Source: Anaerolineaceae bacterium (lineage in GTDB: Bacteria > Chloroflexota > Anaerolineae > Anaerolineales > Anaerolineaceae). Taken from it: a stretch of 64,000 nucleotides of DNA. The notes under the pieces were generated by a model. That model was given only the letters and a program-made list of their open reading frames with translations. It made no database searches and was not told where the DNA came from. Positions 8,644 to 62,621 of this stretch are shown piece by piece (position 1 is the first letter of the stretch; each line of letters starts with the position of its first letter). Location: positions 8,686 to 72,685 of the forward strand of contig JAXGPH010000003.1 in the NCBI GenBank assembly GCA_040767065.1. Reading direction: 5' to 3'. The translations under genes and the position numbers were made by a program.

Positions 8644-11196
8644 ATGCAAGCTAATACCGGATCCTCTCAATTCAGCGCTGGACTTCCAGCAGAGTTTAAC
8701 CGTCTCAATCGCGCCATTTTGGTGGCAGACAGACCCCAAAGCTGGCAGCCTGCCATTGCGGACATGAACGCCTTCCTTTCGCAGCTGGAAACCTGGCTGG
8801 CTGAAAATCCTGCCGTAATCGGGGAAGACATTGTCACCTCCTCGCGCATTTTCAGCCTGCTCCTCACCCTGGCAGCCACTGGCACCCAGGGTCGACTGGA
8901 ACTCTTTCAGGCTAAGGATGAAGCAACGAAAGCAATCCGCGCTCAGATCGATGAGGAATATCTGCCTCGTTCAGGGGACATGCGCCGTAAGGCGATCGCG
9001 ATTGCCCGGGAATACCTGTGCAATCCCGTCTTTGCCAGCCTCTCGGAAGATATCCACTACGAAGTACTGCCTTTGCTTGAGAGCCTGGACGACAACCAAG
9101 ACCCGGACCGTTTTATGGCTTACCGCGTGATCCAGATCGGCAACATTTTTGAGCGGCTATTTGCTTTACGGTTGCGCACAGGGGATCCTGCCTTGCTGGG
9201 CTTGGCGGGCAAAAAAGGACTGCTACGGGAAATTTACGACCGCAAATATCTGCGCTTTGGCACTTCAGGCGTACGCGGTCGCTGGGGATTTGATTTCACT
9301 GAGACTCGCGCCCGACAAGTTGTGCAGGCAATATGTGACTTTTTGAATAACGAACATGTGCCTGCCTTTGTTGGCGCTGAAGATCTCTCTGGCAAAGTAG
9401 TTGTGCTTGGGCATGATACCCGCCGAAATTCAGACGTCGTCACCCAATGGACCGCGGAAACCTGCCTTGCCAATGGGTTCAAGGTGCATATCGGTACGCG
9501 CGACGTGCCCACCCCTGCCCTGGCTTTTTATGAGACCGAAGTGGTTCCGCCTGACGAAGTGGCAGGGTTGATCATCGCGACCGCCAGCCACAACCCTCCG
9601 GAGTGGCAGGGCATCAAGTTCAACCCCCGCCTGGGCTATCCCGCTCCTACCAATGTGACCGATTTCATTGCCTTCCGCATTAACGAACTCCAACTGATCG
9701 ACCACACTGGCGGACAAAGCGATGTCGAGAACGCCCGCGCGCGCGGGCTGGTGCAGGGATTTGACCCCCTTGATGATTACGTCAAATGGATCAAGAATAA
9801 CGGTAAGGGTAATGCTCGCATCCCGATCGATTTTGACCGCATCCGACGTTTCTTTGCTGACAAAATGGTAGTGGTGGATGAGATGCACGGCTCCGGGCGC
9901 GGCTATCTAACCCGTTTGCTCGGCGAAGCCGGCGTGCGCTTCACCGTGATCCATGCCAATGTCGACCCGGATCTGGGCGGGCAGGATTATGCCAACCCCG
10001 AGGAGCCTTTCAACCAGCTGCTCAAAGAGACAGTCGCCCAAACCGGCGCGCAGATCGGCATGGGCATGGACACTGATGCTGACCGTTTTGGGATTGTGGA
10101 CAAGGGCGGCGTTTACTTCAGACCCAACCAAATTCTGCCGATGCTGCTGCGCTATCTGGGCGTGGACCGCGGCATTACAGGACGTGTGATCGCCACCCAA
10201 ACCGGTTCCCCTCTGCTTGAAGTACTGGCAGGCATGATCCCGAATAATGATGCCAATAAGCCTGCAAAGGGCGCTCTGCCTGGATACGTCGGGCAGAGGA
10301 TTTACAAATGCAGGGTGGGTGATATAGCTTCGCGCAGCCTCCAAAATGCTTTTGCCGTACCTGTGGGGATCAAGTATATCGAGGAGATCCGCCGTACAGA
10401 TGCCGCGTATAACAACCTTAAGATCCTTCCGGATGATTGGCGCGACCGCATCCTGATTGGCGGCGAGGAATCCTCCGGTCTGACCACGCGCGGACACATC
10501 ACCGACAAGGACGGTCCCTGGGCTAACCTGCTGATTCTGGACATGCTCGCCTATTATGGTACCCGTGCTGAAAAACCGCTGGGCACGCTGCAGGAAATCT
10601 GGGACGAACTAGTTAATCTTCCCGGGCTTTGGCAATCCTATGGCACCTCCTCGGACCCCACCTCTCACGCTGGTCGCTCAGATGTGGACGCGCCGCTTGA
10701 GGCGAAAGAAGCCTTCATTGATTACTATCTTGACCTCCCGGAGCATGTTGGAAAGGACGGGTTGAAGATTGCCGGATTGAACATCGACTACCTCGGTGGG
10801 ATCCGCTATGAGCTGGTGGAAATGCAGCTAAGCGACCAAAGCGGCAACGACCACTATTACCTGCGCATGCGCGCCTCGGGCACCGAACCCATCAATCGTA
10901 TCTACATCGAAGCAGCCGACCTGCAAGTTGGGCAGCGTATGATGGCAGAAGTGCTTAACAAGTTGGAAGAAATCACCGCCGACACGCTGCGAAAGGCGCA
11001 TTCCCCGTGGCACCTGGTGGACATGCTGTGCCAATCGCGCTTGGGTGATCGTACAGAACAGGCTGTGCGAGAGGTGATCTCCAAGCAACAATGGAGCATG
11101 GCAGATATCCTCGCGAAAATCGATCTAATGACCCAAACCCTCGAAAAGCGCAATCGCAAGGTGATTCAAGCCTGGCACAAAGCTCTAAGCGCGTAA
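8644..11196 (+). CDS. 850-aa alpha-D-phosphohexomutase family protein with ~200-aa N-terminal and ~100-aa C-terminal extensions
   Basis: FGTSGVRGRW, TASHNPPEWQGIKFN, GMDTDADRFGIVD, GGEESSGL and RMRASGTEP are present, so all four PGM/PMM signature loops are intact. AAGGAG RBS. The N-terminal 200 aa have no motif I recognise. Confidence 0.8.
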   Translation: MQANTGSSQFSAGLPAEFNRLNRAILVADRPQSWQPAIADMNAFLSQLETWLAENPAVIGEDIVTSSRIFSLLLTLAATGTQGRLELFQAKDEATKAIRAQIDEEYLPRSGDMRRKAIAIAREYLCNPVFASLSEDIHYEVLPLLESLDDNQDPDRFMAYRVIQIGNIFERLFALRLRTGDPALLGLAGKKGLLREIYDRKYLRFGTSGVRGRWGFDFTETRARQVVQAICDFLNNEHVPAFVGAEDLSGKVVVLGHDTRRNSDVVTQWTAETCLANGFKVHIGTRDVPTPALAFYETEVVPPDEVAGLIIATASHNPPEWQGIKFNPRLGYPAPTNVTDFIAFRINELQLIDHTGGQSDVENARARGLVQGFDPLDDYVKWIKNNGKGNARIPIDFDRIRRFFADKMVVVDEMHGSGRGYLTRLLGEAGVRFTVIHANVDPDLGGQDYANPEEPFNQLLKETVAQTGAQIGMGMDTDADRFGIVDKGGVYFRPNQILPMLLRYLGVDRGITGRVIATQTGSPLLEVLAGMIPNNDANKPAKGALPGYVGQRIYKCRVGDIASRSLQNAFAVPVGIKYIEEIRRTDAAYNNLKILPDDWRDRILIGGEESSGLTTRGHITDKDGPWANLLILDMLAYYGTRAEKPLGTLQEIWDELVNLPGLWQSYGTSSDPTSHAGRSDVDAPLEAKEAFIDYYLDLPEHVGKDGLKIAGLNIDYLGGIRYELVEMQLSDQSGNDHYYLRMRASGTEPINRIYIEAADLQVGQRMMAEVLNKLEEITADTLRKAHSPWHLVDMLCQSRLGDRTEQAVREVISKQQWSMADILAKIDLMTQTLEKRNRKVIQAWHKALSA

Positions 11197-11433: not shown

Positions 11434-12297
11434 ATGAAAATAGTTACAGACAGTGGTGCTGACATCGCATATGAAGAATGTGAATCACTCGGAATCACTA
11501 TGCTTCCGTTGAAAGTAGAAGTAAATGGCGTATCCTATCAATCGGGTATAGACATTGATCCGGATAAGTTTTATGACCTGATGGATGCAAGTCCAACCAT
11601 GCCGATCACCTCCACCCCATCTGTAGGTGAATTTGTGGAAGTCTATCAACGCCTCGCTAGGGAAGATCCAGAAATTCTCTCGATCCACCTTTCTTCCGGC
11701 CTGAGCGGCACGTTCAATACCGCGGTCCAGGCAGCAGCGATGGTACCTGAAGCCAAAATCACCCTGATCGACACGCTCACACTGTCCGCAGGCACTGCCT
11801 GGCAATTACGCGCCGCCTCTGCAATGATGAAAGCCGGGCATCAGTTGAAAGAAGTTGTCGACGTTCTGCAGCAGATCCAGGACGCATCTGTGACTTTCTT
11901 TACCCTGCCCGATTTGAAATATTTGATCGCTGGAGGTCGCATTAGCCATCTGAAAGGTTTGCTGGCTTCACTGCTGGGCATAAAGCCAGTGATCGAAGTC
12001 AGCAAGGTAGACGGCAAATACTACGATAAAAGCAAAAAACGCTCCTTTTCGCAGGCTATCAATGCCATCACCGAACTGGTACGGAAGATTCATCCTGCAG
12101 GTACCGAGCTTAAGGCACAAATCGTTACGGCAGCCAACCCCACTGGCGCTGAGCAGTTAAAAGTTTCAATGGATAAAGTCTTTAAATGTCATTGGGAGCC
12201 AACGGTCACTCTTGGAACCGCTCTTGGAGCTCATACTGGTCGGGGTTTGGTAGGCATTGTCTGTGCCGCCACATCAGCTCTACCCGCGATAAGTTAG
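11434..12297 (+). CDS. DegV family fatty-acid-binding protein
   Basis: MKIVTDSGADI start and overall DegV architecture (SSGLSGTFN, GGRISHLKG). RBS agagg. Confidence 0.85.
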   Translation: MKIVTDSGADIAYEECESLGITMLPLKVEVNGVSYQSGIDIDPDKFYDLMDASPTMPITSTPSVGEFVEVYQRLAREDPEILSIHLSSGLSGTFNTAVQAAAMVPEAKITLIDTLTLSAGTAWQLRAASAMMKAGHQLKEVVDVLQQIQDASVTFFTLPDLKYLIAGGRISHLKGLLASLLGIKPVIEVSKVDGKYYDKSKKRSFSQAINAITELVRKIHPAGTELKAQIVTAANPTGAEQLKVSMDKVFKCHWEPTVTLGTALGAHTGRGLVGIVCAATSALPAIS

Positions 12298-12348: not shown

Positions 12349-13775
12349 GTGCGCCCAGCATGGGCGCTGGCTGGAGGGTGAAAGACCATTACGGAGGGTT
12401 GTTGTGCCAACCGTCAGCCAAAGGCAAGGGCATGGAGGAAGCTGAAGCCAACCCTGTGGCTTGAAGGACATGAAGCCGATCAGAGGCTGTGCGGCTGGGC
12501 GAGTTGGCAAATAACAACGAAGCCCAATGCGGCCAAGAGCCAAAGCAGTAAATAGGGCAGGAGTGCAGGGAAAGTCAGCATGCTTACCTGGGGAGGTCTG
12601 CCATCGTTTTGGAAAGTAACCCTGTTTGAGAGGACAGGCTGAGGTGGCAGAAGTCGCTCGAGGCCATAGTACCAAGAGTTTTTTGGGAAGGGCCGAACAG
12701 TGAGAGGATGAGTACAGAGAGCAGTCCATGGGATGAGCGAGAAGACAGAAACCACTGACAGAGGGCTATCGAACAAACGAAGCAGGTGAAACCTACGCGC
12801 GGGATTTGATCGGAGCGTCGAGCCGTTCCCTACAACAATCATCCGCCACAACCCAACCAAACGGAACGGCGCGAGGCCGTTCCTACAATAATCATCCGCC
12901 ACGAGCAAGCGGAACAGCGAGAATATCCACCTTAGCTTTATGCCCTTATCGTTTTCGTAGGGAAGGGCTTGACCCCTTCTCAGCAGCATAGCCAAACCGC
13001 GGAACGGCGCAGGGATATCCACCTTGGCTTGGTTGTTTTCGTAGGGGAGGGCTTGACTCCTTCTCCAACATGGCCAAACGGAACGGCGCGAGGATGTCCG
13101 CCTTGGCGGAATTGTTTTCGTAGGGAAGGGGCTTATTTTCTCATTATGGCCAAGCGGAACGGCGCAAGGCCGTTCCTAACAATCATCCGCCACAACCAAA
13201 CGGAACGGCGCAGGCCGTTCCCTACAATGGTCTTATAGTTTCCGCTGTGTATACGGTTAACCACAGGGGGTTATCCCTACACCTGGAAGTTTGAGGAGCA
13301 GATCGCCACGCAAAGAAGCTCGCGATGACGGATTCAGGCCAGATCGCTACGCAACAGAAATATCACCACAGCCAGATCAGCATAAAGGAAAGAATCCCCG
13401 TAGGCCAGATGAGACCGCCCCGCGGCCTTACTCTCATCCAATCGTGCGGCTCAGTCGGCGCAATTCGCCGATAAACATTTTCCATGTCGAAAAAGGCAGA
13501 TCGCCGTACCCTGCTTCGCGGGCACAGGCGCAAAAGAGGCTCGCGATGCCGGATTGCCCCTACACCTGGGAGTTTGAATTCACCCATAACACAATCCAGT
13601 CAACACAATCTGGGGTTACCCCTACAATATGAGACCTGGCGGTCAACTGCCTCGCACGGTCTGGAGACCGGCGAGAACAAAGGTGTTGTATTCTGGTAGG
13701 GGCAGACCCCTGTGTCTGCCCTGAAGACCGTAAAAAATCACCCTGGATAATGTGTAAACAATCATACCTGTTTAA
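12349..13775 (-). repeat. mosaic non-coding repeat block 1 (module X, hairpin-unit array, GGGCAGAC-type palindromes)
   Basis: 12349-12830 is near-identical to the reverse complement of 60290-60620. 12830-13255 holds about 5 units with the hairpin GGAACGGC-N5-GCCGTTCC flanked by TGTAGGG/CCCTAC. 13690-13775 matches 59690-59770 in reverse. ORFs here are open in several frames and track the repeats. Confidence 0.7.
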
Positions 13776-44984: not shown

Positions 44985-45600
44985 GCAGACACGATCCCTT
45001 ATTTGCCATAAGACCATCTTAAGGAAAAGACCTGCCTGTTCCACAACTTCTTGGTTGACGCAACCCGCAAGGGGAGGCTTTGCATGTGGTTACATGGGCA
45101 GACACAGGGTCTGCCCATGTAAAAGAACCGTGTTTACCCGAATAATTGCCATATTGAAAAACGCAATCCGGCCCACTCCATTTATTTTGATCGCTCCGGG
45201 CAGACAGGGGGCCTGCCCCTACATGAAACGATCTCAATCGAGAAAATCAATGCGGATGGACGCGAGGCCCATCCCTACGGTGGGTCCAACTCGTACGGTG
45301 GGGGTTTACTCCCACCGCGCTATCTAATCGTCAGGTTGCAATAGGTGAGGCACCCTTTCGTTCTCACCGGTCTCCCGTCCGTGCGAGATTTTTGAGCGTC
45401 AGGCCACATTTGGCAGCCCTTGGCGACTCCTGGGCAGGCACAGGGGGTTGACCCTACAAAATGAATGCCCATGTAGGGGTAACCCCCATGGTTATCCATG
45501 TACGAAAGCCGGATTGAAAAACGCAATCCAGTGACCCTCATGTGGTTACATGGGCAGACGCGAGGGGTTTGCGCATTATGCCCGCACTCGTCATTAGACC
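44985..45600. repeat. cluster of short palindromic repeats (GGGCAGAC-loop-GTCTGCCC type)
   Basis: Hairpins at about 45094-45118, 45198-45222, 45421-45445 and 45552-45575, usually followed by CTAC/CATG. The motif attgaaaaacgcaatcc is duplicated. The same hairpin family occurs at 13697-13720 and 59742-59766. Confidence 0.55.
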
Positions 45601-45635
45601 ACCGTAGTGAAAAGACCTGCCTTATCCTTGTCTTC

Positions 45636-45908
45636 AGCATGCGTAGATGCGATCTGGCTTCTTGCGATTGAGGGCGGTTTCCAACCCTCCTTCAAAATAG
45701 TCTCGGCGAACCTTGCTCACAGTTACGGTGGATACATCGAATGCTTCACAGATCACCTGATAATTCCAATCCGTTCCCTCGGTACTACTGTCTGACTTCA
45801 ACAATATCTGCGCTCGGCGCGGTTTCCGGCTGGCGCTGTACCGGAAGAAATGAACTGCCTTAATTGGGAACGTTCAACTTCGCTTAGTTTGATCTGATAT
45901 TTTGGTTC
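45636..45908 (-). pseudogene. N-terminal remnant of an IS630-family transposase (HTH region), frameshifted and truncated
   Basis: KYQIKLSEVERSQLRQFISSGTAPA is followed, after a 1-nt shift, by RKPRRAQILLKSDSSTEGTDWNYQVICEAFDVSTVTVSKVRRDYFEGGLETALNRKKPDR and then a stop. No DDE domain follows. Confidence 0.6.
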
Positions 45909-46043
45909 ATGGCGGTTGTCTTTTGCAGGTGTGTGGTTTGCAAAAAAGGTGGCATATTCCATGCAAAGTCTAACGTTTAGGTTGGATAGACTGCCAGCCG
46001 CCTCTGCTGCGCAACCTGAATTGAACAAATCTGGCTCTCGATA

Positions 46044-46865
46044 TTACCTCTCACGCTCGGTTACTGGAAGATCGCCTAACAGCAGCGTGGGTGTGATACC
46101 TTTATCCGTCAGGATCACCTTGGCGTTATCCTTCAGCGAGGCTTCCACCATCTCGATTTGCTTCAGTGCCTGGGCATTTCCGACAAAGTATTTCTCAGCC
46201 GATTCATTGACAAGCCTGATTGCCTCTGCCCGCCCTTCAGCAACCTTAATAGCCGCCTCACGTTCGCCTTCAGCCCGCTGGATTGCCGCCAATTTCTGTT
46301 GTTCAGCCGCCTCGAACTCACCCGTTGCCAGCAGCCTCATTGAGCGCCGCTCCTGCTCGGCTGTTTTCTGTTTGTGCATCGCCTTTTTGATATCCTCAGG
46401 TGGGTCGATCAGGCGAATTTCCACTTTGCTTACTGTCAGCCCCCATTCCACCGCGAAGTTGCCCAAAACAGCTTTGAGGTTCGTTGCGATTTTCTCCCTG
46501 GCAACCAGGCTCTCGTCCAGAGTCAAGTCGCCGAACTCCTGCCGCAGGTTGGTCATCGCCAGTTGAATTATGGCTCGTTTCCAATCATCGATATTGTAGA
46601 ATGTGCGCTTGATCGAATCTTCGTCAGTAGATGGACGCACCCACATGACGCCGTCAACCGAGATTTCGACATTATCCTTGGTAATGACAGATTGGGGCAT
46701 GATGTCCATGGTATGCTCGCGAATATCCCGAACCCGCACTAATTGCAAAAAAGGTAACTGCAAGCCCAAGCCAGGAAGTACAAAGCGGGTATATTTTCCC
46801 AGCGTTTCCTGGATGCCTCGTTCGTAGGGTCGTAAGGTAAAAATGGGGGTTACTATGGTTCTCAT
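46044..46865 (-). CDS. SPFH/band-7 (stomatin-like) domain protein lacking an obvious N-terminal membrane anchor
   Basis: The SPFH core is PYERGIQETLGKYTRFVLPGLG..VITKDNVEISVDGVMWVR..EWGLTVSKVEIRLIDPPEDI, followed by an Ala/Glu-rich coiled coil. Confidence 0.85.
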   Translation of the reverse strand: MRTIVTPIFTLRPYERGIQETLGKYTRFVLPGLGLQLPFLQLVRVRDIREHTMDIMPQSVITKDNVEISVDGVMWVRPSTDEDSIKRTFYNIDDWKRAIIQLAMTNLRQEFGDLTLDESLVAREKIATNLKAVLGNFAVEWGLTVSKVEIRLIDPPEDIKKAMHKQKTAEQERRSMRLLATGEFEAAEQQKLAAIQRAEGEREAAIKVAEGRAEAIRLVNESAEKYFVGNAQALKQIEMVEASLKDNAKVILTDKGITPTLLLGDLPVTERER

Positions 46866-47017
46866 AATTGGTCCTTGATCTCAAATCCCGATATGTCCAT
46901 TGGTCTGATACAGCTCAAATTTTACGCCTGCATACTGATTATTAAATTAATAATAGCAAAGCAACAGGCAGATGTCAAACTTAATCGTGTCTACGGCGCC
47001 TTTTCATTTCTGTATTA

Positions 47018-47353
47018 TTACATGCTGATGACTTTTTCCCCTTCTAGCAGCGCGGCAAATATTCCGGGCATGCCGCCTGTCTTACCAACCCTCACCTTGT
47101 CTGTCAGCTCAAAGTTCTCCAGGCATGTAGAGCAGATTGTCAGCTCCATCCCCGCTGCTGCCAGTATCCTCACCCAATCCAGCATCGGCGAGCCTTCACA
47201 CACCAGTTTCACACCTTTAGCATAAAACACAACCTAAGCGGGCTTCTCTTCTTCCTGGGCTGCCAGGCTCAGAAATTTCACAGCCAGGGTTTGCGGCCAA
47301 TTTTCCGGAGCATCCCCCATCCCATTATGGGTAAACAAAAAGACGGTCTTCAT
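47018..47353 (-). pseudogene. DsrE-like (YedF C-terminal-domain-like) protein with an in-frame TAG
   Basis: MKTVFLFTHNGMGDAPE..EEKPA, then a stop, then VVFYAKGVKLVCEGSPMLDWVRILAAAGMELTICSTCLENFELTDKVRVGKTGGMPGIF..GEKVISM. A single frame of 112 codons, with the TAG at 47234-47236. Confidence 0.6.
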
Positions 47354-47444
47354 TGGCTCTCCTACTGGATGTGCATGGGCGGCTTGAAGCCCTCCAAAAA
47401 ACCCGGGATCTCAGCTTAATGTCAGTTCCGGGCCATCTGAATCA

Positions 47445-48150
47445 CAACTACCCGCTATGCGGGTGGTTTGCACTGAGGCTATAAGCCTTGTTCTCTAGCC
47501 AGCGCCTCAAGGCGCTGGCTTTCTCTTCGTTCAAGCCACCTTGCACTTGTCTCTTTTGCCGCCCCTCAAGGGGCTATCTCTTATCTCTTCTGTTCAAATG
47601 GGTCCTGGTATTCCTTCACACTCAACCGGTCTACCGCCTGATCCCTTTGTTCTTGCTCTGCTATGTACTTCTTGATTGTCTCTTCATTCATTCCCACTGT
47701 ACTCACATAGTATCCCTCACACCAGAAGTGCCGGTTCCCATATTTGTACTTCAGGTTCGCATGCCTCTCAAAGATCATCAGCGCACTCTTCCCCTTCAGG
47801 TATCCCATCACACTCGATACACTGTACTTCGGTGGAATACTCAACAACATGTGGATGTGATCCGGCATCATGTGCCCTTCGATGATCTCCACCCCCTTAT
47901 ACTTGCACAATTCCACCAGAATCTCTTTTATGTCTTCCCGTATTTGATTGTAGATTATTTTTCGCCTATACTTTGGCGTGAATACGATGTGATATTTGCA
48001 CATCCATTTCGTGTGTGCCAGACTGTCTGTTTTATTGGCCATACAAAACACCTTTCCTCTCTGGTCTGTGGCTTGAACACTCACATTCTATCGGAAGGGT
48101 GTTTTGGTTTGGGTCTAACCCTTTGCCCCCACCCGCATAGCGGGTGATTT
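47445..48150 (-). mobile_element. IS200/IS605-family insertion sequence (tnpA only)
   Basis: A Y1 transposase gene flanked by subterminal hairpins cccgctatgcggg (47450-47462) and cccgcatagcggg (48132-48144). Extra hairpins lie at 47495-47518 and about 47557-47573. The boundaries are approximate. Confidence 0.7.
47581..48042 (-). CDS. tnpA: IS200/IS605 family transposase TnpA (Y1 HUH)
   Basis: HTKWMCKYHIVFTPKYRRK, the HUH motif MPDHIHMLLSIPP, and the catalytic Tyr region GYYVSTVG. Confidence 0.85.
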   Translation of the reverse strand: MANKTDSLAHTKWMCKYHIVFTPKYRRKIIYNQIREDIKEILVELCKYKGVEIIEGHMMPDHIHMLLSIPPKYSVSSVMGYLKGKSALMIFERHANLKYKYGNRHFWCEGYYVSTVGMNEETIKKYIAEQEQRDQAVDRLSVKEYQDPFEQKR

Positions 48151-48238
48151 TTGTCTCTTCGTTTCACGAGTTCGACTGCCTAAAGGCGTAATATATACCA
48201 GGCTCGGGTTGAGCCTGGCATAGCACAGTTATCGAAGT

Positions 48239-49003
48239 CTATACTGGTGCAAGCGTACCTGCGAAAATCATCCAGGCGAGTGCCGTCTTGGAAGTCAGGC
48301 TGAGGATGATGTAGGCTCTCTCGCCCACGAGATAATCCTTCCAGGCGCCAACTTTTTTGTACTGCAGGATCATGTTGATCGCAAAGGAATTGAAGAAAAC
48401 GAAAATGGTCGGAATGATCGCGTAAACGAACGTCGGCGGCTTAGCTCCTGAGGAGTTGATGGCGCTAAGGAAGTAGATCATGATCACAACCCAGGGAATG
48501 ATCCCCGCCACACTGCCATAAACAAAGGAAAGCCAGTTGGTTTTCTTGGTGTACTGGTTGTGGTACTCCATCATGATGCCAAACAAGTTCATGGTTGCGT
48601 TCAGGAAGAACACCAGGATAATGCTTCCCAGATCCCAGATGCCAACCAGCTGCCCGATCAGGACGATCATCAGAGATGAGCTGAGCGCATACTCGTAGAA
48701 GCGAATAGGATTCATGTTGCGATCAAGGAAGCTGGTGTAGCGCTTGTAGCCGATGGTAGAGATATAAAAATGCGCCACGGCAGAAATCAGCAAAAAGATC
48801 GCCACTGCAATGCCAAACGGAACTTCCCAGAAAAGCTTGGGGTCAGGAACGAGCTTTCGGGTTTCAAGATTGAAGGTCAGAAAATTGGTAAAGATTGGAT
48901 AAGTTGTGTCATTGCTGAGCACAATCATGAGTACGCCCTGAATAAGATGCAGGAAGCCTATGAGCAGGTTGAACTTACGTAAGCCTTGATATTTTGTTTC
49001 CAT
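48239..49003 (-). CDS. heliorhodopsin
   Basis: 7 TM segments. TM1 is LRKFNLLIGFLHLIQGVLM. TM3 is NPIRFYEYALSSSLMIVLI, with Glu at the counterion position. TM7 is ILSLTSKTALAWMIFAGTLAP, with the Schiff-base Lys. IIPW and FFNSFAINMILQYKK segments are also present. Confidence 0.85.
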   Translation of the reverse strand: METKYQGLRKFNLLIGFLHLIQGVLMIVLSNDTTYPIFTNFLTFNLETRKLVPDPKLFWEVPFGIAVAIFLLISAVAHFYISTIGYKRYTSFLDRNMNPIRFYEYALSSSLMIVLIGQLVGIWDLGSIILVFFLNATMNLFGIMMEYHNQYTKKTNWLSFVYGSVAGIIPWVVIMIYFLSAINSSGAKPPTFVYAIIPTIFVFFNSFAINMILQYKKVGAWKDYLVGERAYIILSLTSKTALAWMIFAGTLAPV

Positions 49004-49300
49004 ATAATCCTCGTTATTAAATTTTATTGTATAAGATTAATTATTAAAATTTTATTACTTTGGCGTTTTTGTACAATAGCTTGTACATAGATTGTGGGTT
49101 GATTCAATGATCAAAAGGTGAGCAAATCGTACCCCTTCGCAAGGTGCAAAACATCACGAACCTCGGGTTATTCATAGTAAAATAATCCGAAGAACAAAAC
49201 GACACCTGCTGTAACCTCCAAGTGACATAGAGAAGGAGTTTTTGCTCACGAAAGGTTGATCGGCAAATCGTTTTGCGGTAGCTTTTGTGAAAGAATCTGA

Positions 49301-50404
49301 ATGGATTACGATGTCATCATTATTGGTGGCGGGCTCTCAGGCTTGACAGCAGCAAGTTTGCTTGCAAAACGGCAGGTGAAAGTTGCGGTAATTGATAAAA
49401 ATTAAAACCCGGGCGGCTCTTGCGGCATTTTCAAGCGGGGTTCTGTGACCTTCGACCAGGGTTCCGCCATGCTATACGGCTTTGGCAAAAGCGGCTTCAA
49501 CAGCTACCGGTTCGTGTTCAACTGCCTCGAAGAACCCATCGACGTGATCCGGCATGATTTATTGTACTGCGTCAATTATCAAGACCAGAGAATTTTCTTC
49601 TGGTCGGATGTGGACAAATTTGCGGACGAACTGGCAAAGATCTTTCCATCAGAAAAGGAAAACATTCATCGCTTCTATCGCGACATGACTAGGATGTGCC
49701 AGCATGTCATGCTAGAAACGCCCAGCTACACAACTCCTGACGAAACCGATCCGAAACAAGGGCTGAAAAGCCTCCTGAAACACCCAATTTCCTATGCCAA
49801 ATTCCTGGGGTACCTGAATAAAAGCGCCCGTAGTTTGCTCCAAAAATACTTTAAGGATCCGGAGATTTTCAACTTTTTTGACAAACTCATCTCCACTTAT
49901 TGCTATGCCACCGTTGAGGAAGCCCTCGCAGTCCTGGCAGCCGTTATGTTCGTGGATAACCACATCGGAGGCAGCTACTATCCCGCCGGCTCCACCCTCT
50001 TCCTCCCGGGAAAGCTCGAGAAAGTCATTGAAGAAAATGGCGGCAACATACTCCTGGACCGCGAAGTTTTGAGCATCCTTTTTGAGGACGAGAACCCAAC
50101 AGGTGTGATGCTGAACGACGGAACAGAGCTAAGAGCACCGAACTTGATCTACTTGGGCACGATCTGGAACCTGTTCGGCAAGCTTATCGACCCTACCAAC
50201 ACCGCGCAAGTTCAGCGCGACTGGGCGAAAAGCATGGTACCCACCTACCCAAGCGTAGTGCTCTGTGCCGTCGTCGAGCGTGAGGTCATCCCTGCGGATA
50301 CCCTGCCGATTGAGATGCTGGTTGGCAACCCGGAGAAGCTTGACGACACGAATTTGGACGAGTTGGACAAAAGGATCAGCATCGCCAAGAGCGAAGATTT
50401 CTAG
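49301..50404 (+). pseudogene. CrtI/phytoene-desaturase-family FAD oxidoreductase with an in-frame TAA and a missing C-terminal third
   Basis: Rossmann N-terminus MDYDVIIIGGGLSGLTAASLLAKRQVKVAVIDKN, a stop at 49403-49405, then NPGGSCGIF in the same frame. The ORF ends at ISIAKSEDF after about 368 codons, where family members usually continue for another ~120 aa. Confidence 0.6.
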
Positions 50405-50473
50405 AAAGCTCACTCCGTTAATTTGATCAATTCTTTCAACCAACTGAACCGATAAACCAAGCGCAAGCAACCT

Positions 50474-50518
50474 ATAGAGCTTGGGAAGCACTTTTGCTTG
50501 CTGCTTCCCAAGCTCTAT
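50474..50518. repeat. perfect 17-bp-stem hairpin
   Basis: atagagcttgggaagca - 11 nt loop - tgcttcccaagctctat, between the truncated crtI-like gene and the DUF2974 remnant. Confidence 0.6.
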
Positions 50519-50622
50519 TGATTTTAATATTTTGAAGAAGAAATATTAAATCTTCCTATCGAATTTGATTTTCAGAATGCTCAGCAATCGAATGGTTCAC
50601 CACCAAATTGCTGTTAATCCAG

Positions 50623-51755
50623 TTACAATTTTTCCCTAAGCGCTTTTAAGATGGTATCCAATGCCTGATCTTTGATTGAGGCAAGCACATCCGACAACAT
50701 TTTTCTAGTCTCTTCATCAAGATCGGATACATTCTTGATGACCTTGCCGATATCTTTGAGACTCTCTTTCGGGTCGATCGTTTTTCCTTCCGAAGCGCCC
50801 AGCACATCAAATAAAGCATCGATGAAGGCTTTGCGACGCTCCAGGGTTAGCTGCGCAAGCCACTTCTCGACGGTTTCTTCAAACAACTTTGTCGTTTCAG
50901 ATAACTCCCCACTCAGGAACTCAGACTGCTCTATGCCCCATGTTACCGGGTTGTGCTGGAATAGATGGTGGGCTGTACTGCTGATTACGTTCCGTTTGCC
51001 AACTGTATCAAGGAGGACACCAACAATGGATTCCTCGGGCACATAATTAACCACTTTTTGCTCGCATTTGGAAAAGGAGGAACGAGAAAGTATTGAGAAG
51101 TTAAAACCGGGACCGTCAAAGTTTAACTATACGTGACAAACGTGACTGCTTGATGCCTTTCAGGCGTGAAGCAGCATACACCGCCAGGTTGCCGCCTTTG
51201 GAATGTCCGCACACAGTCCTTTACCAGAGAGAACACTAATCTCACGATTAAGATATTCGAACCGGTCCTGCGCCGGCACTTCTTTCATATAAGCCAACTC
51301 GAAATTTTCCTTCCAGCCGATAAGGGTTCTGTCGGTACCTCGGAATGCGATTACTTTTTCCGTTGGGCATCTGGTAATGAGTAGGTAATCGCGGCAAATT
51401 GCTGTTCAACAGGAAAATCAGTTTTCTCAACAAAGTGGGATAATCGTATTTTGGCATAGCGTGTTGATTTTGATGTCATTTTCAACATCTGGATTAATTC
51501 CTGGTCCATAGAAGGGCTGACAGTCAGACCAATATTTTCAGGATCTTCTTTGTGTGATGGATGCTCTGAAAAATAGCTCTCCGCGGTTTCTTCAAGAGTA
51601 ATTTTCCCTTTGTCATTTACGCCTGGCACAATATCCTTAAAAGGCAGGTAACTGAGCATAGACAGAATGAGCGCATCGACGTCATTGAAAGGATCTTTCG
51701 AAAAATCTAAATCCCCAGACGATTTGAGATAATCCAGCACCGTTCCCATATTCAT
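50623..51755 (-). pseudogene. DUF2974 (Mbeg1-like alpha/beta hydrolase) gene with at least 3 frameshifts
   Basis: The N-terminus MGTVLDYLKSSGDLDFSKDPFNDVDALILSMLSYL is in ORF 51351..51755. VIAFRGTDRTLIGWKENF, GHSKGGNLAVYAAS and FDGPGF follow in shifted frames. The C-terminal part is ORF 50623..51054. Confidence 0.65.
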
Positions 51756-51890
51756 GCTCCAAATTTAATCATACCGAAAATCCGCGTCAAAAATATTTTA
51801 CAACCATCATACCTTAAGGGGGATGATAGTTATAAGAAATTAGTGCATGTTTTAACCAAAAACGACCAGAAATGGTCGTTTGGAAAATAG

Positions 51891-51962
<72 letters not shown>

Positions 51963-52111
51963 TCGGAAGTCCGCGTATATAACAAAATTTTGTCTTTGTC
52001 AAATCCAATTAACCAAAAGATTACCCAAAAGATCATCAATGAGGCTGCAGACTTTCTGCAGCCTTACGATTCAGTATCGAGTAAACACCCATTCAGTCTT
52101 TAGCAACCCTC

Positions 52112-54643
52112 TTACTGGCTGCGCAGTACGGCGCCAAATACGGTTTTAGTCTGTTTAACGATCCGGTTGCGAATGTTCAGAGCATCTTTATCGGTCAGGG
52201 TGCGGTCAAACGCCTGGTAAGTCAGCTGGTAAGCCAGGCTCTTCTTGCCCGCTCCCAACCTGGCATCCCGGTAAACGTCAAACAGCTTCACATCTACCAG
52301 CAATTTTCCGCCAGCCTGCCAGATCAACGCCTCCAGCTCATCCGCCGACACGTTCTCATCAACAATCAGGGCAATATCCTCGACCATCGCCGGAAAGCTC
52401 GAAATTGCCCGGTTGGTGAAGACCGCATTACTCAACCTGACCAATGCCTCTCCATCAAACTCAGCCACCAGCACAGGGTTCTGCCCGAAGGTGTAGTTTT
52501 TCTTGACCTGCGGGTGAAGTTCGCCCATGACGCCCAGGATTTCTTCCCCTACTCTTACCTCAGCACACTTGCCGGGGTGAAAACTGGGGTGTGCGGTTGC
52601 CTGGAATTTGACCCCCTCCAGGTGCAGACCGTCCAAAAGCGCTTCCACGACGCCCTTCAGGTCAAAGAAATCCATCGCCGGGCTTTGGGGTCGGTCCCAA
52701 CTCGCCACATTCCATGCACCCGTCATGCCAATGCTCAAGCGCAGTGCCTCATGGGGCAGGATTTCATCCCTAACCGGCAAAAAGACCGGCCCCAATTCAA
52801 ATAGTGCCAACCCCGGTCTGAACTTAGTGTTGTACTCCAGAAACTCAAGCATGGTTGCTGTGGCACTGCGGCGCATGACCGTGCGCTCGGGTGTGATTGG
52901 GTTCTTGAGGCGCACATATGCCAGCCCTTCCGGCGCTTTCCTGCCGACATAGATCCTTGCTTCGCGCTCGGGTGAGGTCTGGCGGTACGCCAGAGTGTCC
53001 TGCAAACCAATCGAAACCAAAATATCGCGGATGCGTTCCTCGGCTTCCAGTTTGGGGTTGCCAACCTGGGGAGGAAGCTCGTCGCTCAGGCGCTTCTCGG
53101 CGATTCGCTCATACCCATAGATACGGGCGATCTCTTCGATCAGGTTTCTTTGCCCGATAATCCCAGTTTCGATGTCCGTGCGTGTTGCCGGGCTCTTTGC
53201 TACAAGTTCACTGCCTTCCATCCAGCAGGTGAATCCCAGCCTTTCAAGAATCCGGGTAGATTCTTCCAGCGAAATCTCCTGGCCCAGCACTCCTGCAATA
53301 TTTTCAGCAGATATGCGGTTGACTGCATCAACATAGGGTTTGCCGTATAAGTCCAGTACGCCCTGCACCACCTCTCCGCCGCCCCACTCCTGCACTCGTT
53401 TCAGGCACAGGCTCAATGCAGTTTCTGCCAGCGCCGGATGGACATCGCGGCTGAAGCGATAAGCGGCTTCGCTGTTGATGCGGGTTTTGCTCAGGGTTTT
53501 GCGCAGGTTGATGAAGTTCCAGTTCGCCGACTCTATCAGCAGGTTGCGCGTTTCCGCATGGACGCCCGTTTCACTGCCGCCCATCACACCCGCGATGGAA
53601 AGCGGTCCAACGGTGTCGGTCACCAGTTCTATTTGCGTGTCAAGCTGCAGCTCAGATCCATCCAGCAGGGTGATCTTTTCGCCCTCGTAAGCCGTGCGGG
53701 TGATAATGGTCGGCTTGCCGCCCGCCCGCTTCCGCAGCGCGTCGTAATCGAAGGCATGCAAGGGCTGACCAATCTCGAGCATGGTGTAGTTGGTGGCATC
53801 CACCAGGGCATCAATCGGGCGCATCCCCGCCAGCGAAAGCCGCCGCCGCACCCAGTAGGGGCTTTTGCGGGATTGCGTTTCTTCCACCATCCCCAGCATA
53901 AAGCGCGGGTTCAGCTCGGGGTTGCGCACTTCCAAGCCAACCTTCTCCTCGATTGCTCCCCCTTTTTCCAGGGCAACCCCCTCAGGTAAGCGCAGTGGTC
54001 TTCCTAAAACCGCTGAGAGTTCCCGCGCGATGCCCAAAATGGACGCATCTCTTGCCATATTTGGCAGAATTGCAACCTCATAGACCACATCGCCCATGTA
54101 ATCCACCAGAGGCATGCCAACTGGAGCATCCGCGTCCAGTTCGATAATGCCCTCGTGTTCTTCCGAAATGCCCAGTTCTTTTTCCGAACAGATCATCGAG
54201 CGCGATTCAACCCCGCGGATGGTTGTCTTTTTGAGTTTCGTCATAACCTGTCCAGGCTGATGCCCGTCGTAAAGCAGTGCTCCTTCGCGGGCGTATGCTA
54301 CTTTGATCGGCTGTTCCAGCCTTCCCCTGCCGAGGTAAGGCAACATATTCGGTGCCCCGGTCAGAACAGTTGTGATCCCTGTGCCGTCATTCAGCTCGCA
54401 GAGTGTCAGACGGTCTGCGTTGGGGTGTTGATTTACCTCCACCACCTCTGCCACCACAAATTTTTCCTTATCCCAGGACAAGCCGGCGTATTTATTCTTC
54501 AGGTTGCCTTCAGGCTTTTCCACGCCGACCAACTGCACGCTTTCCACTTCCAGACCGACATTGGTCAGAAGGTTGGCGAGTTCTTCAATGCCAACCCCTC
54601 CCAGATCGATGTAATCTTTGAGCCAACTTAAGGGTGCTTTCAT
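52112..54643 (-). CDS. pheT: phenylalanine--tRNA ligase beta subunit
   Basis: 843 aa. MKAPLSWLKDYIDL start, then tRNA-binding, B3/4, B5 and FDX-ACB domain order. Confidence 0.95.
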   Translation of the reverse strand: MKAPLSWLKDYIDLGGVGIEELANLLTNVGLEVESVQLVGVEKPEGNLKNKYAGLSWDKEKFVVAEVVEVNQHPNADRLTLCELNDGTGITTVLTGAPNMLPYLGRGRLEQPIKVAYAREGALLYDGHQPGQVMTKLKKTTIRGVESRSMICSEKELGISEEHEGIIELDADAPVGMPLVDYMGDVVYEVAILPNMARDASILGIARELSAVLGRPLRLPEGVALEKGGAIEEKVGLEVRNPELNPRFMLGMVEETQSRKSPYWVRRRLSLAGMRPIDALVDATNYTMLEIGQPLHAFDYDALRKRAGGKPTIITRTAYEGEKITLLDGSELQLDTQIELVTDTVGPLSIAGVMGGSETGVHAETRNLLIESANWNFINLRKTLSKTRINSEAAYRFSRDVHPALAETALSLCLKRVQEWGGGEVVQGVLDLYGKPYVDAVNRISAENIAGVLGQEISLEESTRILERLGFTCWMEGSELVAKSPATRTDIETGIIGQRNLIEEIARIYGYERIAEKRLSDELPPQVGNPKLEAEERIRDILVSIGLQDTLAYRQTSPEREARIYVGRKAPEGLAYVRLKNPITPERTVMRRSATATMLEFLEYNTKFRPGLALFELGPVFLPVRDEILPHEALRLSIGMTGAWNVASWDRPQSPAMDFFDLKGVVEALLDGLHLEGVKFQATAHPSFHPGKCAEVRVGEEILGVMGELHPQVKKNYTFGQNPVLVAEFDGEALVRLSNAVFTNRAISSFPAMVEDIALIVDENVSADELEALIWQAGGKLLVDVKLFDVYRDARLGAGKKSLAYQLTYQAFDRTLTDKDALNIRNRIVKQTKTVFGAVLRSQ

Positions 54644-58989: not shown

Positions 58990-60712
58990 GGCATAATGCG
59001 CCGTTTTTACGCACTCCGCCAACGACGTGGGTATCGGAGCGATCCTGCGCAAGGCTTGTATGGAAATAACGCTCTGAGGCAGCCTTGTTCTGACACACAA
59101 CACCCCGTGCGGACCCGGGCAGGCATGGGGGTCTGCTGCTACCCGGAAATATCCTTGTGCGGGTCACCCCATGGGGTGACCCGTCTCGGTTGAGGCATCT
59201 CACAAAGGAAGGCACGGCATCCAACAGGGGGAGGCTTCACACTGCTGTGCCCCGACCAAAAAGGATATGTTCTCGCCGCTCTGCAGATACCCCCCACTTT
59301 GTTGCGATCACAGACCGCACTAGGGGGTTGACCGCCAGGTCTCATAAGGTAGGGGTAACCCCCCTGGTTAACCGTCTACACGGCAGAAACTATAAGACCA
59401 TTGTAGGGAAAAGGCCTGTGCAGTTCCGTTTGGTTGTGGCGGGTGATTGTTGTAGGGAACGGCCTTGCGCCGTTCCGGTTAGCCATGTTGAGGACAGGGG
59501 TCAAGCCCCTTCCCTACGAAAACAATCAAGCCAAAGTGGATATCCTCGCGTCGTTCCGTTTGGTTGTGGCGGGTGATTATTGTAGGGAACGGCCTCGCGC
59601 CGTTCCGGTTGATTGTGGCGGGTGATTATTGTAGGGAACGGCCTCGCGCCGTTCCGGTTAGCCATGTTGAGGAAGGGGTCAAGCTGTTTAGACAAGTATG
59701 ATTGTTTACACATTATACAGGGTGATTGTTTACATATTCCAGGGCAGACACGGGGGTCTGCCCCTACAAAGCTGCCCCCTCCTTAACCCCTGGAGATAGG
59801 GGTAACCCCCTGTGGTTACCCGCTCTCATGGCATATATGCGCTTGGTATTATGATCCAGAAGATTCTATGTGATTGACAAAAGTGTAAACAATCATCCTA
59901 CACAAATTGTAAACCATCATTGCCTCAGCCCCTTCCCTACGAAAACAATCAAGCCAAAGTGGATATCCTCGCGCCGTTCCGTTTGTTTGTGGCGGATGAT
60001 TGTTGTAGGGAACGGCCTTGCGCCGTTCCGGTTAGCCATGTTGAGGACGGGGTCAAGCCCCTTCCCTACGAAAACAATCAAGCCAAGGTGGATATCCTCG
60101 CGCCGTTCCGTTTGTTTGTGGCGGATGATTGTTGTAGGGAACGGCCTTGCACCGTTCCGTTTGGCCATGCTGAGGAAGGGGTCAAGCCCCTTCCCTACGA
60201 AAACAATCAAGCCAAGGTGGATATCCTCGCGCCGTTCCGTTTGTTTGTGGCGGATGATTGTTGTAGGGAACGGCCCGACGCTCCGATCAAATCCCACAGG
60301 CTTCACCTGCTTCGTTTGTTCGATAGTCTCTCTGCCCGAGGGTTTCTGTCTTCCTCGCTCATCCCACGAACTGCTCTCTGTACTCATCCTCTCAACGTTC
60401 GGCCCTTCCCAAAAAACTCTTGGTACTATGGCCTCTGCTGACTTCTGCCACCTCAGCCTGTCCTCTCAAACAGGGTTACTTTCCAAAACGATGGCAGACC
60501 TCCCCAGGTAAGCATGCTGACTTTCCCTGCACTCCTGCCCTATTTACTGTTTTGGCTCTTGGCCGCATTGGGCTTCGTTGTTATTTGCCAACTCGCCCAG
60601 CCTCACAGCCTCATAGGGTTCGTGCGCCTCAGGTCGCAGGTTTGCTTCCAGCTTCCTCCAGACCCCGCCTCACGACGACGCCCTTGCCTTCAGCTAACGG
60701 TTGATGGGTGAA
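58990..60712 (+). repeat. mosaic non-coding repeat block 2, an inverted counterpart of block 1
   Basis: It contains a 22-24 bp perfect palindrome GGGTCACCCCATGGGGTGACCC (59161-59182), degenerate hairpin units at 59400-59690, a GGGCAGAC hairpin at 59742-59766, a 129-bp tandem array at 59925-60290, and module X at 60290-60712. Confidence 0.7.
59925..60290 (+). repeat. 129-bp tandem repeat, about 2.8 copies
   Basis: ccttccctac recurs at 59931, 60060 and 60189 (period 129). Each unit carries GGAACGGC-cttgc-GCCGTTCC and the longer inverted pair CCCTACgaaAACAATC / GATTGTTGTAGGG. Confidence 0.8.
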
Positions 60713-60716
60713 ACAA

Positions 60717-62621
60717 TCACCTCAGGATGAGCGGCAGGAAGAGGTCAAAAGTTTCTTCCGTGAAATAGGCCGTGATGCTCTTGTTTGCGTCCATGATGAT
60801 CGTCAGTGGGTTGACATCCCCGCTTGCATCACCGTCCCAACCCGTGAAGGTCCATCCAGGGTCGGCTGTGGCTGTCAGGGTAACCTGGTCATATAATTGA
60901 TACTCAATCTGATCTGGATCTTTTGTAACCTCACCTTCACCCACCTTATCTACAGTTAAAGAGTAAAGTACAGGATCTGATCCGTACTCATAAGCGCCCA
61001 TGTCACAAACAGCTTCAGAGTCTCCATTTCCATCAACAGGTCGCACAAAATTCCGCTGATCAGTTGCAGGACAGTTGTTTGGGTCGCCGGCATCGATGGC
61101 AGGACTATTCTCGCCAAGGGCCATCGTCTGTGTAAAACCGCCGTTATCTGCCAGATCACCCAAAAGCGGGTCAACATTGATATTTCCATCACCGGCGAAT
61201 CCACCTCCCTGGATATTGCTGTAGGTGATAATTGGTGTCGAACTATACTGATTGGAAATCTGACCGCCGGTGTTTCCCCAAATTATTGCGTTCCTAATCG
61301 TAAGGTTGCTCGCAACGTTTAAAATTCCACCACCAACTGAAGCTGAGTTGCCAACAATTGTGACGTTTGTTAATGTTGAACTTTCGCCATTGGTATAGAT
61401 CCCTCCACCATTTGGAGCTGAGTTGCCGAACATCGTGACATTTGTCAATGTTGGACTGCTGTAATCGGTGCTGCTAATCCCCCCGCCATAGTGAGCTGAA
61501 TTTTCAGTTAGAGTAACACCATTCAATATAGGGTTGCTTAAATTGTAATTGTAAATACCGCCACCGTAATATGATGCTGAATTTGCAGAAAAACTTACAT
61601 CTTTTAATACAGGATCGCTATTCCAGTTGAACATTCCGCCCCCATCATAAGCTGAATTCTCTGAAAAGTTTACCGCCACTAGTATAGGGTTACTATCCCC
61701 GTTGTACATACCCCCTCCACCATAACCTTCATAGGTAGGTGAAGCGGTGTTTTTATAAAAAGTGACGTTGGTCAGTGTGGGGCTGCTGCTATTATTACAC
61801 ATTCCGCCACCAATTAATGCTGAATTCTCATTGAAAGTTACATGATCCAATGAAGGATTACTTTGGGCGTTATACATCCCGCCGCCACAACCTGAAACTA
61901 TGTTTCCAGAAAAAGTTACATTGGTAAGAGAAGAATCGGATGTGGAATTATAGATGCCTCCCCCTTCTCCGGCTGAGTTTCCAGAAAGTAAGATATTTAC
62001 CAATTTTGAGTTACCTGATTCGATGAAAATTCCGCCGCCAAAAGAAGCTGAATTTCCGGAAAATTTGATGTTTCTTAAGGTGAGATAGCTGTCAGCGATA
62101 TACATGCCACCGCCCATGTTGTTGGGATTACTTGAATTAGCAATCCCAACAGTGATGGTGAAGCCATCCAGGATTGTAGTGTCGCTCAAACCGCTGCCGG
62201 TGACCACGTGGAAGCTGTTGTCTGTGTTATTGCCTTCAGTGCCGATATCACCGCTGAGAGTGGTGAGGTTAGCTTCCCAATCGCGCTCGGTTAGGCTGCT
62301 TTCCGTCCCGGCAAAGCCACCATAAATGGCAACGCCTGATTCTAATAAGAAAGTCGCGGTGCGATCAGTGCCTGAAGTGGGTTTGTAAGTGCCCGCCGCC
62401 GCCCAGATCTGATCGCCTTCTTCAGCGGTATTGAGGGCTGTCTGAAGTTCACAGGCATCCGCCCAGGAAGCGCAGGTGCCATCTTCACTTGGTTTGACAT
62501 AGAGAATGTTGCCTTGGGTTTGGGGAGCGGTGGAATACGCAGAGACGGCGCTCCAGCCCAGGAAAATGCATAGTAATGCCGCGGAAAAAAAGACACTCAA
62601 AACGGATTTTTTAGCTTCCAT
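60717..62621 (-). CDS. secreted right-handed beta-helix repeat protein (Pmp-like GGxxxN repeats) with a C-terminal InlB-B/Flg_new-like repeat
   Basis: Signal peptide MEAKKSVLSVFFSAALLCIFLGWSAVSAYS. At least 10 repeats of the type L.NVTFSGNSA..GGGIYN. The C-terminus is LTVDKVGEGEVTKDP..VTLTATADPGWTFTGWDGDASG. Confidence 0.7.
   Translation of the reverse strand: MEAKKSVLSVFFSAALLCIFLGWSAVSAYSTAPQTQGNILYVKPSEDGTCASWADACELQTALNTAEEGDQIWAAAGTYKPTSGTDRTATFLLESGVAIYGGFAGTESSLTERDWEANLTTLSGDIGTEGNNTDNSFHVVTGSGLSDTTILDGFTITVGIANSSNPNNMGGGMYIADSYLTLRNIKFSGNSASFGGGIFIESGNSKLVNILLSGNSAGEGGGIYNSTSDSSLTNVTFSGNIVSGCGGGMYNAQSNPSLDHVTFNENSALIGGGMCNNSSSPTLTNVTFYKNTASPTYEGYGGGGMYNGDSNPILVAVNFSENSAYDGGGMFNWNSDPVLKDVSFSANSASYYGGGIYNYNLSNPILNGVTLTENSAHYGGGISSTDYSSPTLTNVTMFGNSAPNGGGIYTNGESSTLTNVTIVGNSASVGGGILNVASNLTIRNAIIWGNTGGQISNQYSSTPIITYSNIQGGGFAGDGNINVDPLLGDLADNGGFTQTMALGENSPAIDAGDPNNCPATDQRNFVRPVDGNGDSEAVCDMGAYEYGSDPVLYSLTVDKVGEGEVTKDPDQIEYQLYDQVTLTATADPGWTFTGWDGDASGDVNPLTIIMDANKSITAYFTEETFDLFLPLILR

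Follow-up and report, generated by a model that had tools for sequence, protein, structure and literature searches.

An intact heliorhodopsin gene between a pseudogene and an insertion sequence

We analyzed a 64,000-nucleotide stretch of DNA (the window) in which an intact ORF of 254 codons, with an ATG start and a TAG stop, occupies 48239–49003 on the minus strand. It lies between a divergently oriented oxidoreductase pseudogene and an IS200/IS605-family element. The original prediction called this ORF, with no strand given, a heliorhodopsin (HeR) gene on the basis of three sequence contexts (GFLHLIQG, RFYEYALSSS, and SLTSKTALAW) and its C-terminus; all were present in the translation, which ends in FAGTLAPV. 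The Pfam heliorhodopsin profile (PF18761) matched the ORF at profile positions 1–242 of 242 with an E-value of 4.9e-99 and a score of 331 bits (cut-off 26.7), and was its sole Pfam match at E up to 1. The NCBIfam equivalog NF038020 ('heliorhodopsin HeR') scored 357 bits against a cut-off of 100, and neither collection offered a rival family. Matches of this strength lie well outside what chance would produce.

In a search of solved structures, the best matches were all heliorhodopsins. TaHeR (6is6) ranked first, with an E-value of 6.5e-70 over query residues 3–253 (251 residues); the 48C12 structures 6su3 and 6uh3 matched at E about 6e-60 (6.3e-60 for 6su3), and other matches included 7clj (the TaHeR E108D mutant), 9ljj, and the eukaryotic Cv06 (9vfc). 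K239 (in SLTSKTALAW) paired with the Schiff-base lysine of SLVAKSALAW in 6is6 and 9ljj, E104 (in RFYEYALSSS) with the glutamate of RWFEYSISAS in TaHeR, H78 (in AVAHFYI) with the histidine of TaHeR ATAHILI, and H19 (in GFLHLIQ) with the other TaHeR histidine, so that the lysine, glutamate, and histidine columns aligned as originally predicted. K239, H19, and H78 were invariant in alignment A1, and the 7clj mutant chain differed only at the E104 column. We take TaHeR chain residue 244, the partner of K239, to be K238 (chain index minus 6); with the same offset, E104 presumably pairs with TaHeR E108 and H19 with H23, and we assume that the 48C12 equivalents are K241 (Schiff-base lysine) and E107 (counterion).

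TaHeR, from Thermoplasmatales archaeon SG8-52-1 (6IS6, 7U55, 7CLJ), carries the lysine, the glutamate, both histidines, and the predicted fenestration residues (F160, S164, G167, F204, N205, and A208 in the window protein) in the same columns, but it is archaeal, differs by a 5-residue indel in the TM5–TM6 loop, and comes from another host and genomic context. The founding member of the family, HeR-48C12 (6SU3, 6UH3) of a freshwater actinobacterium, has the same key residues, but is further from the window HeR than TaHeR is and sits in a context of its own that lacks carotenoid genes.

A hydropathy scan found seven hydrophobic segments in the protein. On the side of the N-terminus, which includes loops 2, 4, and 6, lysines plus arginines numbered 13, versus 3 on the opposite side. 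This distribution supports the predicted inverted topology, with a cytoplasmic N-terminus, that had been proposed for the ORF. An AlphaFold model built from a shallow 12-sequence alignment (mean pLDDT 57) had seven helices and, at this low confidence, a beta-hairpin (strands at 42–45 and 50–53) in the first loop, where heliorhodopsins carry a long one. When the same low-confidence model was searched with Foldseek, TaHeR came first (E 3e-10, TM 0.57) and type-1 rhodopsin structures appeared only at E above 1. Pfam likewise gave no bacteriorhodopsin-like match at E up to 1, in agreement with the earlier remark that the protein lacks the DTD/DTE/NDQ motifs of type-1 pumps. Judged by its sequence, the ORF encodes a true heliorhodopsin of an ordinary kind, with all of the family-defining residues.

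Close relatives of the protein are common in public databases. E-values of up to 1e-20 were obtained for 6922 of 8000 scored candidates; the best database proteins were 93–98% identical and 254 residues long, those at 92–93% identity were annotated as 'heliorhodopsin HeR [Anaerolineaceae bacterium]' or '[Chloroflexi bacterium]', and an identical protein was encoded on six further public contigs. The gene is already known, and standard pipelines annotate such genes. Database HeRs of the Anaerolineaceae (e.g., P0016 and P0021; 92–98% identical, 254 residues) come from genomes in which the carotenoid-type operon next to HeR is intact and the chromosomal location differs from that in the window.

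PheS and the SPFH protein of the window fell in 90% clusters whose named members are Anaerolineaceae bacterium, and the housekeeping genes (lysS, metK, frr, uppS, cdsA, pheST, and tpiA) were of ordinary bacterial type. The host is assigned as an Anaerolineaceae (Chloroflexota) bacterium, and this assignment does not rest on HeR alone.

Several features elsewhere in the window deserve mention. Two adjacent genes of the phosphoglucomutase/phosphomannomutase family lie on the plus strand at 7156–8625 and 8644–11196, the second encoding 850 residues with a 200-residue N-terminal extension. The minus-strand ORF at 60717–62621 encodes a probable surface protein of 634 residues, with an InlB B-repeat-like domain and repeats of the Chlamydia-PMP type. 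Dispersed intergenic repeats of about 25–65 bp, 85–95% alike, at 13298–13721, 45083–45572, and 59327–59818 are shared with contigs L096, L100, and L016 and may form a REP-like element family.

Expression signals and a conserved TGTACA element

On the minus strand upstream of HeR, a ribosome-binding site (GAGGA, 49008–49012) was kept in 13 of 13 aligned loci. We placed a candidate promoter at 49049–49087 from conservation among the aligned loci; a generic sigma-70 promoter scan did not single it out. It consists of a −10-like TAAAAT (49049–49054) and a −35-like TTGTAC (49071–49076), the latter inside a tandem TGTACA-N6-TGTACA element (TGTACAATAGCTTGTACA, 49070–49087). A second conserved block in the divergent intergenic region (ATTCATAGTAAAATAATCC, 49170–49188, strand not assigned) is a possible −10 for the divergent operon. 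On the other side of the gene, 20 nt past the HeR stop codon, lies a terminator-like hairpin on the minus strand (48198–48218), with arms CCAGGCTC and GAGCCTGG followed by TATATATT, a folding energy of −21.5 kcal/mol, and a T/A-rich run after it. In contig L001, the loop of this hairpin (48206–48210) reads AACCC where the window has GGGTT, an exact reverse complement, and the whole hairpin appears flipped. An Rfam scan of 45000–53000 found a tRNA alone; the intergenic region thus contains no riboswitch or other known RNA.

The TGTACA-N6-TGTACA element was rare and tightly linked to HeR. Allowing up to one mismatch, it occurred seven times in 1.35 Mb (the fetched loci plus the window), and all seven sites preceded a HeR start by 83–98 nt. 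They fall in the closest sub-clade, in six of its loci and in the window. In the window itself, one site was observed and 0.03 were expected. Operators of the LitR/CarH family, whose members are light-responsive repressors, have the form T(G/A)TACA-N12-TGTA(C/T)A (PMC9758184). The HeR element resembles them in its identical TGTACA half-sites, its overlap with the −35, and its position ahead of light-related genes, but its half-sites are 6 nt apart rather than 12. No MerR/LitR/CarH-type regulator gene was found near HeR among the scanned window ORFs. We do not class the element as a LitR/CarH operator and regard it as a lead only.

The divergent oxidoreductase is a pseudogene

Upstream of HeR, on the plus strand at 49301–50404, lies the 5′ remnant (~369 codons) of a gene for a CrtISO/CrtI-family FAD oxidoreductase whose intact homologues have 614–622 residues. 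This stub corresponds to residues 1–369 of the 614-residue homologue in L011, to which it is 85% identical, and it lacks the C-terminal ~245 residues. It is also interrupted by an in-frame TAA at 49403–49405 (codon 35), a position occupied by tyrosine in intact homologues; a frameshift reading was rejected, as translation gives the in-frame TAA. The ORF that follows this stop covers only model positions 48–345 of 493. A complete CrtI/CrtISO enzyme, with FAD-binding and substrate domains in about 490 or more residues, is not encoded here, and we classify the gene as a pseudogene from its reading frame and length.

Four independent metagenome contigs (L001–L004; 99.5–99.9% identical) cover the 5′ part of the stub, two of them (L001 and L002) nearly the whole of it. 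None of the four differs at the TAA, and past the end of the ORF the comparison is with L002 only. Because independent contigs carry the same sequence, the defects of the stub are not assembly errors. Among the 49 larger window ORFs scanned, there was no gene for carotenoid or retinal biosynthesis (crtB/M, blh, or a carotenoid-cleavage enzyme).

HeR is constrained next to a decaying neighbor

Compared with the four nearest species, the dN/dS of HeR was 0.040–0.056. HeR is under strong purifying selection, with a dN/dS of about 0.05. For the oxidoreductase stub dN/dS was 0.077–0.094, versus 0.038–0.066 among intact copies, which points to recent inactivation. The four near-identical contigs showed no differences in the HeR coding sequence or the 297-bp intergenic region; the stub had 13 variable sites, 6 of them non-synonymous and 7 synonymous.

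HeR lies on a strain-variable segment

Directly past the HeR terminator hairpin, an IS200/IS605-family element occupies 47374–48193 on the minus strand. It encodes a Y1 transposase, TnpA (47581–48084, minus strand; PF01797, E 3e-42; NF033573, 163 bits), and has identical palindromic subterminal hairpins (ACCCGCATAGCGGGT) at 47450–47464 and 48130–48146, the combination that places it in this family; its tnpA-proximal end carries TTAC (48188–48191, minus strand).

The element forms one end of a 3,145-bp segment (47374–50518) that comprises IS200, HeR, the oxidoreductase stub, and a perfect hairpin with a 16-bp stem (50474–50518; −29.5 kcal/mol), whose foot is the exact other end. Contig L098 does not have this segment: there, window position 50519 is joined directly to 47373, and the sequences on either side of the joint are 98.2% and 99.3% identical to the window. 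The contig encodes an identical SPFH protein and has an intact 376-residue Mbeg1-like gene; it starts inside the Mbeg1-like gene, so that tRNA-Met falls outside its coverage. From this empty site we conclude that the 3,145 bp are present in some strains and absent from others. In a further, more divergent contig (L100, 97%), the pheT stop codon abuts 47375, and tRNA-Met, the Mbeg1-like gene, and HeR are all missing. Its junction falls at the same point as that of L098; therefore, this junction has been used more than once. The arrangement in the window was confirmed by the HeR–IS200–SPFH junction in L001, L003, L095, and L097. Near-identical strains thus differ across 47374–52111, the region that follows pheT; within it the HeR segment lies past tRNA-Met, and close by, the sequence CCAGTAG (47362–47368, minus strand) repeats the last pheT codons.

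We favor arrival of the segment by insertion over deletion elsewhere, because the module is found at other places in relatives, the operon is truncated, and local GC content dips to 0.45–0.46. The idea that IS200 TnpA mobilized the whole 3.1-kb unit, with the 50474–50518 hairpin as a surrogate end, is speculative; that end reads …AATCA, unlike the TTAC of the real end. No further copy of the IS or of this hairpin was found in the window or the fetched loci. An IS200–recA flank junction in L096 was set aside, as it may be an assembly join across the repeated IS.

Next to the segment, the Mbeg1-like (PF11187) hydrolase gene (50623–51755, minus strand) is split into three reading-frame pieces. 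Four indels separate it from the intact L098 copy, one of 3 nt and three of 1 nt (the latter near 51360, 51219, and 51124; two of these in A-runs). We found no independent contig record of these indels, which may be homopolymer sequencing errors.

HeR is linked to a carotenoid-type operon in the closest relatives

A scan of GTDB species genomes gave 80 HeR loci, almost all from Anaerolineae. In all 11 species loci with a HeR at least 85% identical to that of the window (L011–L021), a divergent gene of the CrtI/CrtISO family adjoined HeR or stood one gene removed, and contigs L005–L010 had the same arrangement. The fullest operon (L011, L012, L016, and L017) runs divergently from HeR in the order OX614–OX523–GT2–CrtO. 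The nearest solved relatives of OX614 are gamma-carotene desaturase and CrtI, OX523 belongs to the phytoene-desaturase family, GT2 is a CruG/HpnB-like glycosyltransferase, and CrtO is an acyltransferase (PF18927). Parts of this operon are missing from several relatives: only residues 549–614 of OX614 are left in L014, GT2 is a 59-residue remnant in L018, and both GT2 and CrtO are lost from L013. From these repeated partial losses, we conclude that the carotenoid-type operon, as read from these loci, is eroding repeatedly and that HeR is always retained.

Two further features of these loci were observed. At its C-terminus, the CrtISO-like oxidoreductase beside HeR (L011 7861–9705, minus strand; L005 6750–8618, minus strand) carries an additional Cys-rich domain (about 100 residues) with weak Fer4_20 matches, a feature that CrtI-family enzymes do not usually have. 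A multi-pass membrane protein of 280–350 residues (L011 3749–4591, plus strand; L005 8665–9714, minus strand), absent from the window, is also encoded in most loci of this sub-clade; this protein (MEM280/349) had no Pfam, NCBIfam, or PDB match, and a TspO-like identity was dropped for that reason.

More distant HeRs had other neighbors. None of the 69 loci with a HeR 70–81% identical to that of the window had a CrtI/CrtISO-type gene adjoining HeR. Only two of them gave hits at all, both weak: in L065, 51 residues matched the FAD-binding N-terminus at a distance of 8.2 kb, and in L073 a 23%-identical CrtI-family gene lay 6.8 kb downstream. Neighbors in the 70–81% loci were heterogeneous and included DegV (7), DUF2177 (7), an ABC transporter (4), DUF1295 (4), and SOUL (3), and these neighbor classes have already been described in the literature. 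A DegV-family gene, among the most frequent direct HeR neighbors elsewhere in Anaerolineae (7 of about 64 loci), is also found in the window at 11434–12297 (plus strand), 37 kb from HeR.

Homology between the window and the HeR module of other species was confined to 48198–50346 (83.9% DNA identity to L011), and the flanks were unrelated. A comparable linkage is known for Znf-HeRs, which have carotenoid and photolyase genes as neighbors (Bulzu et al., 2021, PMC8612252). The likeness lies in the phytoene-desaturase/amine-oxidase-type genes that adjoin HeR; unlike the Znf-HeRs, the window HeR has no zinc-finger N-terminal extension, and its associated gene set includes GT2 and the CrtO acyltransferase and has decayed here. 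In a broader scheme that we offer tentatively, and consider possible rather than probable, HeR and a carotenoid glycoside-ester-type operon in one Anaerolineaceae sub-clade would form a divergent cassette that moves among strains and chromosomal sites and is controlled by a shared TGTACA-N6-TGTACA operator, HeR would act as a carotenoid-response sensor or antenna user, and the window would represent a late stage in which HeR alone is retained.

Proposed function and alternatives

Our preferred reading, to which we assign a probability of roughly 85%, is that the window encodes a functional retinal-binding HeR that is transcribed on its own, takes part in a carotenoid-linked light response, and belongs to a module fragment on a strain-variable segment. 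The protein would cross the membrane seven times with its N-terminus in the cytoplasm and, as in characterized relatives, would bind all-trans retinal through a protonated Schiff base on K239, for which E104 would be the only counterion. Light would isomerize the retinal and produce a long-lived intermediate with no net ion transport, by analogy with TaHeR and 48C12, and the output would most likely be a change in a bound partner protein. HeR is predicted to be transcribed alone, with a promoter and a hairpin terminator that belong to it. Relatives in the closest sub-clade carry HeR and the carotenoid-type operon as a divergent pair that shares an intergenic region with the operator-like element, and the genomic context suggests that HeR probably functions in a light or photo-oxidative-stress response alongside carotenoid modification. 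In this genome, the module is reduced to a fragment, consisting of an intact HeR and a dead first operon gene, together with IS200 on the 3.1-kb variable segment.

The original prediction described the physiological role of heliorhodopsins as unsettled. This still applies to the window HeR, whose partner and role we infer, but regulatory partners have been shown for three bacterial HeRs: glutamine synthetase for AbHeR, a photolyase for TfHeR, and the OmrDE ABC transporter for OcHeR (PMC9529153, PMC9769723, PMC11109279). The likely mode of action would be the same, a light-dependent protein contact with no transport. Unlike these three, the window HeR is monocistronic and those partner genes do not adjoin it.

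Several observations count against the preferred reading. The scanned window ORFs include no gene for retinal or carotenoid biosynthesis, and the TGTACA element departs from LitR/CarH operators in its spacing, with no MerR/LitR-type gene seen nearby. HeR is flanked by pseudogenes or an IS only, and the local context names no partner. In addition, several of the nearest relatives come from bins titled 'AnMBR', which we take to mean anaerobic membrane bioreactors, that is, dark habitats; if so, a light-sensing role sits awkwardly with their origin.

A different use of the linkage to carotenoid genes would also be compatible with the preferred reading. A 2025 preprint proposed on computational grounds that a lateral fenestration serves most HeRs as a carotenoid-binding site, and the window HeR could accordingly be a carotenoid-binding 'two-antenna' rhodopsin, with the operon making or modifying a carotenoid that docks there. 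The strict linkage in the closest sub-clade is consistent with this model, and the protein has the expected residues at all six fenestration positions (aromatic, small, Gly, aromatic, Asn, and small), invariant in alignment A1. However, about 91% of HeRs have the fenestration motif, which makes it non-discriminating, and the claim of the preprint comes from docking and sequence statistics rather than measured binding. The operon also contains no phytoene or dehydrosqualene synthase, and HeR is strongly constrained here despite loss of the operon; in a strain of this kind, HeR would depend on the carotenoids of neighboring cells. We consider this model unlikely.

Less probable still is that HeR is an intact but unused passenger, dragged with IS200 into a variable spot and bound to decay. 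Both flanking genes on one side are broken, a near-identical strain lacks the segment, GC content dips locally to 0.45–0.46, and the window contains no cofactor pathway that we could find. A passenger would not be expected to look like this gene, however, which has no stop codon or frameshift, keeps every family-defining residue, and has a dN/dS of about 0.05. Neither HeR nor its promoter has a substitution across the four other contigs, versus 13 in the stub, and the ribosome-binding site, promoter elements, and terminator are all conserved.

The original prediction also stated that heliorhodopsins have no demonstrated ion transport, which no longer holds for the family, as a viral HeR has been shown to transport protons (PMC9448325). 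It is nevertheless very improbable that the window HeR is a light-driven or light-gated ion transporter in the manner of viral V2HeR3, since the protein is closest to TaHeR and 48C12, for which transport is unreported, and has the fenestration motif that viral sub-family 2, ion-transporting HeRs included, lacks according to the 2025 preprint.

Significance of the genomic context

The expectation that each new genomic context of a heliorhodopsin is informative was borne out mildly. The gene itself adds nothing, but its surroundings contribute a decayed cassette, an operator-like element, and a case of presence and absence between strains. The strict, clade-specific linkage of HeR to carotenoid-modifying genes provides a modest lead on HeR function, and the conserved operator-like element ahead of HeR could serve as bait for its regulator. 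At this locus, strains with and without HeR are separated by just 3.1 kb and would provide a natural experiment for a light-dependent phenotype. Finally, HeR stays constrained after loss of the neighboring operon.
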